Under the pieces are notes generated by a model. The model ran no database searches and was not told where the DNA came from. It saw only the letters and a list, made by a program, of their open reading frames with translations. From the IMG/VR virus record IMGVR_UViG_3300027865_000006: 20,000 nt of DNA. One strand, given 5' to 3'. Numbering within the stretch: the first letter of the stretch is position 1; every line of letters begins with the position of its first letter. The stretch is from an uncultured virus (IMG/VR IMGVR_UViG_3300027865_000006). Its lineage: Duplodnaviria > Heunggongvirae > Uroviricota > Caudoviricetes. Below are positions 154 to 13,609 of the stretch, piece by piece. Both the position numbers and the translations under genes were made by a program.

Positions 154-184
154 ACTCGGTTTTATCAAACGAAAGGGAAACAAC

Positions 185-1393: not shown

Positions 1394-1463
1394 TGAAGCC
1401 GAAAACCTAGCGTGACTAGGTTTTGAACTTGAAATTGATACCATCATTTGGTAGTTAGTTTGC

Positions 1464-1572
1464 GCGCCAGTTGTTCTTTCAGTGCTACGTTGGAACTATT
1501 TTTAACGAGCCTTCGAGACAAGCTCGCTATTTGGTGGATGGAGCCTCACCCTCTATCCCTGGCGCATTTTTT
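1464..1572 (+). ncRNA. Candidate structured RNA A (cloverleaf topology, not a canonical tRNA)
   Basis: 7-bp closing stem GCGCCAG(1464-70)/CTGGCGC(1559-65); arms GTTC/GAAC, CGAGC/GCTCG, GGATGGAG/CTCTATCC; then A and T6. G-U pairs work only on the + strand. Confidence 0.5.
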
Positions 1573-1649
1573 CTTACGCCCTCAAAGCTCCGTTACTCGC
1601 TGAGTTACTTTCCCTTTCGCAGGGGGTAACGGGGCTCTGAGGTCGCAAG
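1573..1649 (+). ncRNA. Candidate structured RNA or leader B (long hairpin with pyrimidine-rich loop)
   Basis: CCTCA(1580-84)/TGAGG(1638-42), AGCTCCGTTAC(1586-96)/GTAACGGGGCT(1626-36), CTG/CAG; loop AGTTACTTTCCCTTTCG; ends right at the helicase SD. Confidence 0.5.
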
Positions 1650-1660
1650 AGGAGAAAATT

Positions 1661-3916
1661 ATGGGTGAATTTAAGGGTCGAGTGACTCGGGTGCATAGAT
1701 CCGGGGAAGAATGGAGTTCTGGCCGGATTTATTGCCACCATCTCGATAAGGAGATTGGCTTTGCTGGCTCTTGTTACGCCTCGACGGGTGTGACTATGAC
1801 GCTTTACGGGGAGCTGGTCACAGATCCCAAGTGGGGTCAGCAAATCAAGGTTACGTCCGGCCAAGTCGACCTGACGTTTACGGCGCAAGGGCTGATTGAC
1901 TATCTCACCGACGAAAACAAATTCGAGCATATCGGGCCGGTGCGTGCTCGTGCTCTAGTCGACGAATTCGGAGTGGACGGTTTTCAAAAGCGCGCTGAAG
2001 ATCCCTCGCGTCACATGGATTTCGCGAAGATCAACGGAGTCACCGCCGAAACTGCTAAGGGGATCCATGATCATTGGCAGGAAGCCAAGACGGTTAATGC
2101 CCTCATGGTCGCGTTCCGAACCTATGGACTCGACCACGCGCGTGCAATCCAGGTTGTAAGAGCCCTTGGCGGTACCGCTGTGCTGCTATTGAGGGAAGAT
2201 CCCTATCGGTTGATTGACCTGGCTGGCGTGCCTTTCGCTGAAATCGATAAAGTAGAGAGAGCGGGTGGTATCGATAAGCGGGATGTTCGCCGAATAGCTG
2301 GCGTGGTTCTATCCGTCCTCACGCATCACGCAAAGGACGGGCACACTCGTATGGACCATAAGGCCCTCCTGACCGCTGCGCGCAATTACAGCGCCTATAT
2401 GGGGCTTTCTGTCGAGAAGATGCAGGAAGCCGAGAAATACCGAGCTGGGTTGTCCTCTGGATCTCCATTTCAGTTGCTGGAGTATGGCGCGGCTTTGACC
2501 AGGCTCCTAAAAGCCGAGCAAGATTTCTACCAGTGGGTTGTAAAGAGCCGGTCGCAGCCTTCGCAGCTTGCGAAGCGTACACACACAGCTAGTGCTGTAG
2601 CACCGTCTGAATTAACCGCGCAGCAGCAACAAGCCTTTAAGCTCTGCCTGAATTCTTCTGTGACTTGGATTTATGGCCTCGCTGGCACCGGCAAAAGTTA
2701 CAGCGCGAGGATGATTTGCGATCTGTATTCAGCAGCGGGAATGAGTGTGATGCTCATGGCCCCTACGGGCAAGGCTGCGAAGCGTCTCGAGGAGTCTACT
2801 GGACGGGTGGCCACCACTATTCATAGGGGTCTCGCGTGCCGTCCGAAAGTCGGCGGGGCGTCCGGTAAACTGAAGTTTACGTTCGAGGGCGATCCCCTCG
2901 AGGCTCAGCTCATCATAGTCGACGAAGTTTCCATGGTTGACTCCGAATTAATGGGTCACTTAATACGTCGTATTGATCTCACGCGAACATCTGTGATTTT
3001 TATGGGTGATGTCAATCAACTCGTACCAGTGGGAGCGGGGCAACCTGCCGTAGATATTCATAAATTTGAATGTTGCGTGCCTATGGTTCAATTGACCGAA
3101 ATCGTAAGGCAAGCGGGTAAACTCGCGCACTATTGTGTTGATGTATTGGATAACAAAGTACGTGAAACTACGGACTATGAGAACGGGTGGATACTGCGCA
3201 CGAGTGTTCAGGCTACCGATACCTACGAACATATTCTAGGGGCTTTCGAATCCAAGTGGACGGAAGAGTACGACTCGTTTTCGGATATTCAAATACTCAC
3301 TCCTCAGAATCGAGGACCGTTAGGGGTCAACACACTCAACATCGTATTGCAGCGCCATTTTCAACTTTCGCGCTACGGAATCCATACGGATACACCGCTC
3401 GATGGCCACCCTCAAATCATGGTGGGAGACAAGGTTATCCAAACGAAAAACGATTACAATTTGGGGATCTTTAACGGTGATACTGGAATCGTTTTGGAAG
3501 TCGTAGAAGATCAGTTTCATACCTACAAAAAAGGGTCGATTTGCGTGGACTTTGGCTTGATCGATCCTGTATGGTTGTTAACATCAGGGGGATCTTCAAA
3601 TACTAATCAGACCAAGAATCTCAAGCTAGCATACGCGCTCACAGTCCACAAAGCTCAGGGCTCTGAATACCCTTGTGTCATCGCAGTCGTAGACCGAATA
3701 CATAAACATATGCTTACCCGTTCTTGGCTCTACACAGCCGTGACAAGGGCGCAAGAATCGATCTGCATTCTCGGCCAACTATCCGCTGCTCAAACCGCAG
3801 CCAGGCAAATACATTCACCAATCGCGAAGACTCAAGGCCCACGGCAGACCTACCTCAGTGCCCTCCTCTTGGAGGAGGATCTTGCTAACTGGTCTGAGGA
3901 GGAAACCAAATCATGA
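1661..3916 (+). CDS. recD2: RecD2-like ATP-dependent SF1B DNA helicase (751 aa)
   Basis: N-terminal OB-like region (G.LVTDPKWGQQ), HhH-like IGPVRA, EDPYRL, Walker A GLAGTGKS, APTGKAAKRL, DEVSMVD, GDVNQL, GDKVIQTKNDY, NGDTG, YALTVHKAQGSEY, LYTAVTRA. Confidence 0.95.
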   Translation: MGEFKGRVTRVHRSGEEWSSGRIYCHHLDKEIGFAGSCYASTGVTMTLYGELVTDPKWGQQIKVTSGQVDLTFTAQGLIDYLTDENKFEHIGPVRARALVDEFGVDGFQKRAEDPSRHMDFAKINGVTAETAKGIHDHWQEAKTVNALMVAFRTYGLDHARAIQVVRALGGTAVLLLREDPYRLIDLAGVPFAEIDKVERAGGIDKRDVRRIAGVVLSVLTHHAKDGHTRMDHKALLTAARNYSAYMGLSVEKMQEAEKYRAGLSSGSPFQLLEYGAALTRLLKAEQDFYQWVVKSRSQPSQLAKRTHTASAVAPSELTAQQQQAFKLCLNSSVTWIYGLAGTGKSYSARMICDLYSAAGMSVMLMAPTGKAAKRLEESTGRVATTIHRGLACRPKVGGASGKLKFTFEGDPLEAQLIIVDEVSMVDSELMGHLIRRIDLTRTSVIFMGDVNQLVPVGAGQPAVDIHKFECCVPMVQLTEIVRQAGKLAHYCVDVLDNKVRETTDYENGWILRTSVQATDTYEHILGAFESKWTEEYDSFSDIQILTPQNRGPLGVNTLNIVLQRHFQLSRYGIHTDTPLDGHPQIMVGDKVIQTKNDYNLGIFNGDTGIVLEVVEDQFHTYKKGSICVDFGLIDPVWLLTSGGSSNTNQTKNLKLAYALTVHKAQGSEYPCVIAVVDRIHKHMLTRSWLYTAVTRAQESICILGQLSAAQTAARQIHSPIAKTQGPRQTYLSALLLEEDLANWSEEETKS

Positions 3917-4191
3917 GTGAGGTAAGCAGAAACCGTAATACTAAATTCTTTTTCGCTTTCCTGGGTCTCCTGTTCGGCGTTGTCGTAACTCTTTCAGGGT
4001 TACGTGGTTTACACGAACCTCGCGTCGAGATTCCAGTTGAGCCTTCCGAGGATACCAGTGCTGACGCGCAGTACGACCGGCTAATCGAAAAGTGTCGCGC
4101 TGCCTGTAAACCCAATGCAGTGAAGTCTTGCACCATGATTAATGACTGGGGCGTGTGGCCTCGAATTGAATGCTGGGGGCCGAAGCTATGA
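3913..4191 (+). CDS. Small membrane-anchored protein with Cys-containing C-terminus (92 aa)
   Basis: ATGA coupling to helicase; hydrophobic FFFAFLGLLFGVVVTL; four Cys in C-terminal part. Confidence 0.75.
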   Translation: MSEVSRNRNTKFFFAFLGLLFGVVVTLSGLRGLHEPRVEIPVEPSEDTSADAQYDRLIEKCRAACKPNAVKSCTMINDWGVWPRIECWGPKL

Positions 4192-7714: not shown

Positions 7715-7965
7715 GGTGCCTTTCCCGGCCACGCGCCTATTATTACGGTGTGCTCTGTTCGGGTTGTTCGGATGCTTCGCGACTTGCCCGCTATGGAATG
7801 CACGAAACCACCGTCCACTAGTCGGTCGAGCATGTAGGCAATCGAAGTAGCGGTTCGTTTTACGAGGCCGCATAGTTCTAGCTGTGTTGGAGCACTTCCG
7901 TGCTCTAGCCAGTATCCTTCAATAGCTTCGATGTATTCTAGCTGTGTTGGTGTTGGTTGATTCAT
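7711..7965 (-). CDS. LexA N-terminal DNA-binding-domain-only protein (84 aa)
   Basis: T..Q...I......G.APT..EL.......S....L..L...GF....GKSRSIR matches the LexA winged HTH; no peptidase domain. Confidence 0.85.
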   Translation of the reverse strand: MNQPTPTQLEYIEAIEGYWLEHGSAPTQLELCGLVKRTATSIAYMLDRLVDGGFVHSIAGKSRSIRTTRTEHTVIIGAWPGKAP

Positions 7966-8084
7966 TATTTGTCCTCATTATCGTTATCGAGGAGATGAGC
8001 GGTGAGCCCTACAATAAGTAGGATTATTATGAATCCAATTAAGACTCCCCAAAGCCCAAAAAAGACTATTTCCCAAGTGCTCAT
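7965..8084 (-). CDS. Small single-pass membrane peptide (39 aa)
   Basis: MSTWEIVFFGLWGVLIGFIIILLIVGLTAHLLDNDNEDK*. Fills the gap exactly, with ATGA overlap upstream and TAATG overlap downstream; below ORF-track cutoff. Confidence 0.8.
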   Translation of the reverse strand: MSTWEIVFFGLWGVLIGFIIILLIVGLTAHLLDNDNEDK

Positions 8085-8326
8085 GCTGAGCACTCATGAA
8101 TAACCACCTCGATTTCCATCCTTGTAGTTTGGATATTGCGAATCAATCCCCCCATAGGACGGATGAACCCTCCGTCTTGTAGGCGTTCGAGCATGGAAGC
8201 TACCGCAGGTTGTTTGCGCCCCATGAGGGTTGCTAGGTCTCGCTGCGTAGGGCTCATTCCACGGTGTTGCCAAAACCATTCGATAGCTTTGATGTAGGCT
8301 AGTTGTAAAGGCGTAGGTTCTTTCAT
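8081..8326 (-). CDS. LexA N-terminal DNA-binding-domain-only protein, paralogue 2 (81 aa)
   Basis: PTPLQLAYIKAI...GMSPTQRDLA...SMLERLQDGGFI...RNIQTTR; aligns end to end with 7711-7965; SD GGGAG. Confidence 0.85.
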   Translation of the reverse strand: MKEPTPLQLAYIKAIEWFWQHRGMSPTQRDLATLMGRKQPAVASMLERLQDGGFIRPMGGLIRNIQTTRMEIEVVIHECSA

Positions 8327-13570: not shown

Positions 13571-13609
13571 GCCTCGGAGGTCACCACACCTTCGGGGCAT
13601 TTTCTTCTT
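13571..13609 (+). terminator. Rho-independent terminator on the + strand inside a minus-strand block
   Basis: GCCTCGGAGGT/ACCTTCGGGGC 11-bp stem with two G-U pairs valid only on +, followed by ATTTTCTTCTT. Confidence 0.55.

Follow-up and report, generated by a model that had tools for sequence, protein, structure and literature searches.

A conserved plus-strand RNA structure ahead of a RecD2-like helicase gene in an uncultured virus, and its possible role as a regulatory leader

We describe a conserved RNA structure in a 20,000-nt stretch of DNA (the window) from an uncultured virus, IMG/VR record IMGVR_UViG_3300027865_000006. It lies on the plus strand, in the 267-nt intergenic gap (1394-1660) that precedes a gene for a RecD2-like helicase. 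The gap houses two structured parts, element A (1464-1565) and a long hairpin downstream of it, here called hairpin B. An initial annotation of this DNA had proposed that 1450-1572 forms a cloverleaf shaped like a transfer RNA (tRNA) and acts as a tRNA mimic or an antisense small RNA (sRNA). Comparison with relatives led to another description. The conserved core of element A consists of a 7-bp closing helix (P1), an 8-bp hairpin stacked on it (P4) and an invariant single strand (GUUGUUCUU), and this conserved plus-strand RNA structure belongs to a family that is not in Rfam. As for its function, we favour, with about even confidence, the reading that the helicase gene has a regulatory leader of about 200 nt (about 1464-1660, plus strand), with element A as its 5' domain.

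Relatives were obtained by scanning metagenome contigs with an alignment of four close helicases, which returned four loci (L001-L004). The helicase of L001 shows 68% identity, and those of L002 and L004 55-56%. L003 is without the upstream region, and L002 and L004 differ by one base across the entire gap. The lineage is rare, and every comparative statement made here rests on three distinct sequences: the window, L001 and L002. Across the gap, 74-84% of positions are identical between the window and its L001 counterpart, compared with 56-63% in the flanking coding DNA. Trained on these two sequences, a covariance model of element A (R1) recovers the elements of L002 and L004 (E 0.0016), and these are its sole other matches in 39.6 kb.

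Helix P1 is formed by GCGCCAG (1464-1470) and CTGGCGC (1559-1565) on the plus strand. It has 7 bp in the window, L001 and L002, and three of the seven pairs show compensatory double changes (G-C to A-U, C-G to U-A and A-U to G-C). P4 (GGATGGAG, 1536-1543, with CTCTATCC, 1551-1558, plus strand) encloses the 7-nt loop CCTCACC and is stacked directly on P1. In all three sequences it keeps its 8 bp and abuts P1; three of its pairs are doubly changed, and one pair runs through the series G-U, A-U and G-C. The P4 loops are C-rich (CCUCACC in the window, CUGCCC and CCUUCC in the relatives). The junction strand J1/2 (GUUGUUCUU, 1470-1478, plus strand) is invariant in all four sequences, L004 included. 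The initial annotation had noticed the 7-bp stem, the unpaired A1566 behind it and the 8-bp arm (1536-1558) with its 7-nt loop abutting the closing stem; all of these are present, and the arm is kept throughout.

The middle of the element varies. Arm P2 (1484-1510, plus strand) has 3 + 8 bp (1484-1486/1508-1510 plus 1488-1495/1500-1507), a bulged A and a CUAU loop, and occurs in the window/L001 lineage only, where one double and three one-sided pair-preserving changes separate the two sequences, with two G-U pairs in the window. Arm P3 (1514-1526, plus strand; 3-4 bp with a GAG/CUC core) is more weakly supported: three pairs are common to the window and L001, and they show no covariation. An alternative P3, CGAGC/GCUCG, has one compensatory change, yet it is 4.3-9.5 kcal/mol costlier. 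L002 and L004 are without both middle arms. Since MAFFT misaligned arm P4, pairs in element A were counted by coordinates. Across P1, P2a, P2b and P4, 67 of 67 pair cells are canonical (four G-U, no A-C), with seven compensatory pairs, compared with 39-45% canonical cells in a control in which the 3' partner was slid by 1-3 bases. Further copies of GUUGUUCUU, of the hairpin B loop motif and of the upstream TTGA repeats do not stand out in a scan of the window.

The fold is also better than that of shuffled controls. The interval 1450-1572 (plus strand) has a minimum free energy (MFE) of -38.2 (z -2.29; 2 of 200 shuffles equally good), and the trimmed interval 1462-1572 one of -37.2 (z -3.08; 0 of 200). 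The minus strand of element A folds comparably (z -2.80), so fold energy alone is no guide to the strand. The G-U pairs in the helices of element A, together with the many in hairpin B, place the RNA on the plus strand. A short open reading frame (ORF) across the element (1448-1603 or 1471-1629) was considered and rejected because of indels in the homologues, including the loss of the middle arms in L002.

The cloverleaf did not survive this comparison. The letters of its GTTC/GAAC stem (1473-1476 and 1493-1496) are there in the window, but L001 reads GAAAC, the stem is lost, and the pairing is energetically worse. Likewise, the 5-bp arm CGAGC/GCTCG (1506-1510 and 1522-1526) exists in the window, but it falls in the region of the middle arms missing from L002 and L004. 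When both are forced, the fold reaches -32.9 kcal/mol, compared with -37.2 kcal/mol for the fold with the 11-bp arm; the corresponding values in L001 are -31.3 and -40.8. Given the worse energy and the GAAAC of L001, the cloverleaf is neither the best fold nor conserved.

Element A does resemble a tRNA in its 7-bp closing helix, its stacked hairpin and, in the window and L001, its four-way junction. However, it has no T-loop, no D-loop GG, no 7-nt anticodon loop and no CCA, a list that the initial annotation had drawn up correctly, and the junction is missing in L002. The stack of P1 on P4 amounts to 7 + 8 = 15 bp, with 3' tails AUUU, ACUU and ACUU, while the acceptor/T minihelix of a tRNA has 12 bp. 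ARAGORN found no tRNA gene in the 20-kb window, and Rfam gathering scores gave no match over the whole window. Even at E<=10, no tRNA, tmRNA, tRNA-like, C4 or riboswitch family matched around the element in the window, L001 or L002. The matches at this threshold on hairpin B were generic, sub-threshold ones of the miRNA-precursor type; five other weak matches, including DUF805b (9.6 bits) in the window, lay off or partly on hairpin B, and the weak matches in L002 were to mir-33, a snoRNA and a group II D5 fragment. Element A is not a tRNA mimic, and its cloverleaf look is accidental. What did hold of the earlier proposal is that this is an undescribed RNA, conserved and structured, on the plus strand and outside any Rfam family.

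Further information about element A comes from what follows it. The pyrimidine linker UUUUUUCUU (1567-1575, plus strand) includes the T6 (1567-1572) previously read as the end of an sRNA. The six T are present, but as a terminator they are not a conserved U-tract: the tail after P1 is AUUUUUUC in the window, ACUUUUCC in L001 and ACUUUCCU in L002, so that U6 occurs in the window only, with CUUUUCC in L001 and CUUUCC in L002. A terminator scan did not call the T6 site, where about 90 nt lie inside the stem. In the window, the MFE structure of the leader up to the start codon joins U1567-U1575 to A1647-A1655, a strand that includes the helicase Shine-Dalgarno (SD) sequence GAGGAG at 1649-1654 (ATG at 1661; SD and start codon together 1649-1663, plus strand). 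These SD bases have unpaired probabilities of 0.02-0.06. In L001, CUUUUC (3901-3906) pairs with GAGGAG (3983-3988), the unpaired probabilities are 0.00-0.18 over the six bases, with five at <=0.09, and sub-threshold Rfam hairpin matches at 3899-3990 correspond to the stretch from linker to SD. On the strength of these predicted folds, we think that T6 is probably better explained as an anti-SD strand than as a terminator, and that element A is probably not a separately terminated sRNA.

The linker/SD helix is an extension at the base of hairpin B (1577-1645, plus strand; L001 copy 3913-3976), a long helix with a 17-nt loop (1603-1619). Hairpin B is the most structured part of the gap, with z values of -4.55 in the window, -4.05 in L001 and -7.73 in L002, and it is among the top scores in a sliding fold scan of the window. 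As many as 18 of its 25 pairs change on both sides and 91.9% of cells pair, compared with 72.9% in shuffles, 0 of 500 of which reach the observed value, and with 37-49% in slid controls. G-U or U-G cells occur in six pairs, and a single cell is A-C. The stems of L002 are fully different from those of the window with pairing kept, and the loop sequence is retained while the stems change.

This loop is complementary to the SD regions of other genes. In the window, the seed UUUCCCUUUCG (1609-1619, plus strand) is an 11-nt perfect complement of the SD box CGAAAGGGAAA (170-180, plus strand), which spans -15 to -5 of the ATG at 185 and is the proposed target of the loop. It is the longest perfect complement of the B loop in the 20-kb window on both strands, its own site excluded. 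The L001 loop, CUUCCCUUUCA, is perfectly complementary over 11 nt to TGAAAGGGAAG, which occurs at 1999 and 2604, upstream of genes 2014 and 2619. Over 10 nt it matches a further site at 870, ahead of a sliding-clamp homologue (ATG at 884). All four SD boxes stand at equal distance from their ATG, an intergenic hairpin precedes each, and they follow the pattern (C/T)GAAAGGGAA(A/G) with a shared 9-nt core. The two positions that flank the core covary between the window and L001 (G-C to A-U and U-A to C-G). When the loop was shuffled with its composition preserved, 11 nt were reached in 18 of 5000 cases for the window, with 35 translation initiation regions (TIRs), and in 8 of 5000 for L001, with 16 TIRs. 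In duplex energy, the window box (-18.0) is second after an interrupted duplex at gene 592 (-19.1), and the L001 boxes (-21.1 and -19.5) are the two best; the median is near -11. Extended complementarity between a loop and a ribosome-binding site (RBS), with compensatory change, is found for hairpin B, from two informative genomes, and not for element A. The antisense idea of the initial annotation thus finds its RBS complementarity in the loop of hairpin B, and none in the loops of element A itself.

A separate observation concerns the surroundings of the SD boxes. Each box has a hairpin 15-30 nt upstream, one strand of which could also pair with it. In the window this involves 128-154 and 170-180, where UUCCCCCUUUU could pair with GAAAGGGAAAC, and L001 is arranged likewise upstream of 884, 2014 and 2619. 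The pattern of complementary strands suggests that these hairpins could be local SD-masking switches.

Upstream of element A, a block at 1423-1457 (plus strand) contains three TTGA hexamers (TTGAAC, TTGAAA and TTGATA, 1423-1440) followed by TGnTA (1449-1453). The alignment columns TTGA..TTG.A.TTGA and TG.TA are invariant in all relatives, and the distance from the TA of TGnTA to the start of P1 is 12 nt in the window, L001 and L002 alike. Judging from its motifs, the block could represent a promoter with an extended -10 or a site bound by a protein, and the fixed 12-nt spacing fits a transcript starting at P1. A conserved hairpin in this region was also considered and rejected, as the registers differ between the window and L002. 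Sigma-70-type matches across the window number 10, fewer than the shuffle mean of 19.6; promoter signals of another kind may serve the host or the element. Further upstream, just after the stop codon of a 113-aa ORF, hairpin 1 (1402-1424, plus strand) reads AAAACCUAG-CGUGA-CUAGGUUUU. Its L001 counterpart (about 3741-3760) has the stem AACCUAG/CUAGGUU, and in L002 (about 1070-1089) the stem CCUAG/CUAGG of the window is replaced by GCUCCAAU/AUUGGAGC. Hairpin 1 is probably not a plain terminator, since a U-tract follows it in the window only and none follows the L001 or L002 copy.

We infer the transcript ends, the direction of regulation and the specific role of element A as follows. The RNA would start at P1 from the putative TTGA/TGnTA promoter, and 1464-1660 would be the leader of the helicase operon. 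The linker would pair with the helicase SD and extend hairpin B, in this way masking the ribosome-binding site. With the SD masked in a helix, the helicase would be translated only after that helix had been unwound or cleaved, a step that a bound factor or a duplex-specific RNase, for instance, could perform. The B loop would present an antisense seed to the SD boxes of replication-module genes further upstream, and the leader, or a piece processed from it, could also repress those genes through base pairing. Element A would serve as a 5'-terminal anchor, by protecting the 5' end, by stacking on the masking helix, or as a protein platform via GUUGUUCUU. It is tempting to propose that both parts form one riboregulator, in which element A is joined to an SD-masking hairpin whose antisense loop acts on the SDs of sibling replication genes, including the clamp gene of L001. 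Such a regulator would be of a kind undescribed for phages, and we put it forward as a tentative proposal that we would rather doubt than assert. One leader would then tie translation of the replication module to transcription of the helicase operon, and element A would give stability, or would be the switch or protein site deciding when the module is active. The literature searched, including a keyword search of the review PMC12197685, yielded no comparable leader, although this search was thin and is no proof of absence.

Several points weigh against these proposals. A sigma-70 consensus scan called no promoter at the TTGA/TGnTA block, and in a 239-nt context P1 is partly re-paired in the window MFE structure. 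With three distinct sequences, a covariation test of the R-scape type has no power. In L002, the helix covers a purine tract, GAGGGU (1288-1293), that does not serve as the SD; the working SD, GAAAGGA (1300-1306), is supplied by an insertion nearer the ATG and is partly open, with unpaired probabilities of 0.29-0.92. SD masking, as predicted by the folds, is found in two of the three sequences and is not universal. Moreover, the B loop of L002 matches its own helicase SD only, over 8 nt, and upstream SD boxes of L002 are either outside the short contig or absent. The genes behind the SD boxes correspond in position between the window and L001 but are not homologous to each other. Pyrimidine loops match purine SDs easily, and the window 11-mer, allowing one mismatch, is not over-represented. 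The same co-change of loop and boxes would result if a protein read the motif in duplex DNA in both orientations. Finally, the P4 loop, the J1/2 strand and the linker of element A have no significant complement among the 35 window TIRs and the 16 L001 TIRs, as between 190 of 3000 and 2779 of 3000 shuffles matched them.

The L002 loop deserves a comment of its own. There, UCCUUUCA (1250-1257) is an 8-nt perfect complement of the helicase SD UGAAAGGA (1299-1306), about 45 nt downstream. On this complementarity, the two could form a pseudoknot that masks the SD instead of the linker helix.

Other explanations were weighed on the same evidence. Element A could be a free-standing, trans-acting sRNA of about 105 nt that starts at about 1464 and ends in the P1 stem and T6, a branched intrinsic terminator. 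A GC-rich 7-bp stem followed by A and U6 in the window, a possible promoter just upstream and the z of -3.08 would suit such an sRNA. However, the U-tract decays in L001 and L002, the terminator scan was negative, the T6 position is engaged with the SD in the folds of the window and L001, and the loops and strands of element A lack significant TIR complementarity, so that we regard it as unlikely. It is very doubtful that element A is a tRNA-like RNA released from the leader through RNase P cleavage at the 5' end of P1, in the manner of C4 of phages P1/P7 or CI of P4, and works as an immunity antisense RNA. ARAGORN gave nothing, no tRNA or C4 match was found at E<=10 in 3 of 3 homologues, the T-loop and 3' CCA are missing, L002 lacks the four-way junction, and the stack has 15 bp instead of the 12 of a tRNA. 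What fits that idea is the end-closing 7-bp helix stacked on a hairpin inside a replication-operon leader, which is alike in outline to C4 as described in PMC5320573. The RBS-complementary loop fits it as well, but belongs to the neighbouring hairpin B, and the loops of element A are not RBS-complementary.

Translational riboswitches usually show a closed junction followed by an SD-sequestering helix. Element A has a junction closed by P1, with an invariant unpaired strand, and an SD-sequestering helix directly after it; it would then be an aptamer sensing a ligand or factor, with the linker, hairpin B and the SD as expression platform. We consider this highly improbable, because two of the three arms are dispensable (L002 is without them), no Rfam class matches and a helicase gene is an atypical riboswitch target. 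In addition, no alternative pairing of P1 and anti-SD appeared in the folds that were run, which did not include a targeted search. The last explanation operates at the level of DNA: CGAAAGGGAAA (TGAAAGGGAAG in L001) would be an operator in both orientations, and the inverted repeats an origin or operator region. Several genes have the 11-mer ahead of them, an inverted copy occupies the middle of a long inverted repeat, TTGA direct repeats are nearby, and the co-change of all copies is expected from operator-protein co-evolution too. Nevertheless, the many G-U and almost no A-C pairs point to a single-stranded plus-sense RNA, the motif contains the SD and keeps a constant spacing to start codons, and the complete difference between the B stems of L002 and the window, with pairing kept, is unexpected for a protein-bound duplex. 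We consider an operator quite improbable.

The leader reading that we favour can be placed beside known systems. In satellite phage P4, the primase-helicase operon has a leader that carries a small structured RNA, CI, which is cut by RNase P, pairs with sites in the same transcripts and causes premature transcription termination. The present RNA is similar in being a structured RNA that leads a replication-gene operon, and no homology was detected between them. Phage early mRNAs also include SD-masking leaders and hairpins processed by RNase III, of which the lambda N leader and the T7 intergenic sites are examples. Here, too, a long near-perfect hairpin, whose base hides the SD in both the window and L001, stands immediately ahead of the start codon, but the loop sequence is conserved and antisense to the SDs of other genes, and a multi-helix domain, element A, is attached on the 5' side. 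The ompA 5' untranslated region has a 5'-terminal stem-loop that stabilises a bacterial mRNA. Element A would likewise place a helix within 0-2 nt of the presumed 5' end, yet its much larger size and its invariant single strand suggest a role beyond passive protection.

C4 RNA is cut from a larger transcript at the 5' end of its stem P1, and its loops pair with the RBS of the target, according to PMC5320573. The likeness lies in a structured RNA within the leader of its own operon, in an end-closing helix with further stem-loops and in an RBS-complementary loop, here located in hairpin B. In contrast to C4, our RNA has no Rfam match at E<=10 in any of the three homologues, its complementary loop is outside element A, and its targets would be upstream or in other transcription units. 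The resemblance to C4 and P4 CI is one of layout and logic, not of family membership.

The gap lies between two genes on the plus strand. Its 5' neighbour is the 113-aa ORF (1052-1393; stop codon 1391-1393), of unknown function, which has two homologues within 5.8 billion clusters. On the 3' side is the RecD2-like helicase gene (1661-3916; 751 aa; Pfam AAA_30, AAA_19, HHH_RecD2, SH3_13 and UvrD_C_2; phrog_4412), with 3 of 659 matches above 50% identity. At the start of the window, 25-111 (within its first 111 bases) encodes the C-terminus of a sliding-clamp homologue, 41% identical to the L001 protein that matches phrog_947 (tblastn E 1.4e-4). The gene order is sliding-clamp homologue, small genes, leader and helicase. 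With the clamp homologue and the helicase around the gap, the locus is a replication module of a phage-like element. The window is part of a 74,295-bp contig, whose other genes include a serine recombinase and DNA methyltransferases.

Searches for more relatives gave little. By blastn, no similar sequence was found among INPHARED phages or PLSDB plasmids. Scans with single proteins gave no match on viral, metagenome or genome contigs, and viral contigs gave 0 matches both to exact and degenerate DNA patterns and to an alignment scan with the upstream ORF. Scans with the helicase alignment returned 65 loci on viral contigs at <=38% identity and 80 on genome contigs at <=35%, all of them distant RecD2 only, and model R1 found no copy of element A in those 145 loci (1.27 Mb).

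Two structures elsewhere in the window were also recorded. The minus strand at 7960-8100, upstream of the serine recombinase gene (start 7873, minus strand), is structured, with several hairpins (MFE -40.7, z -3.06). On the plus strand, in a gap between minus-strand genes, 13571-13598 forms a strong terminator-like hairpin of 11 pairs followed by ATTTTCTTCT.

In summary, a cloverleaf that was convincing in a single sequence dissolved when three homologues were compared, which calls for caution with such figures. If our interpretation is true, a new RNA family, without an entry in Rfam, would join the leader-embedded riboregulators of phages such as P1 C4 and P4 CI. The helicase, the clamp and accessory genes would then be linked in translation by one leader.

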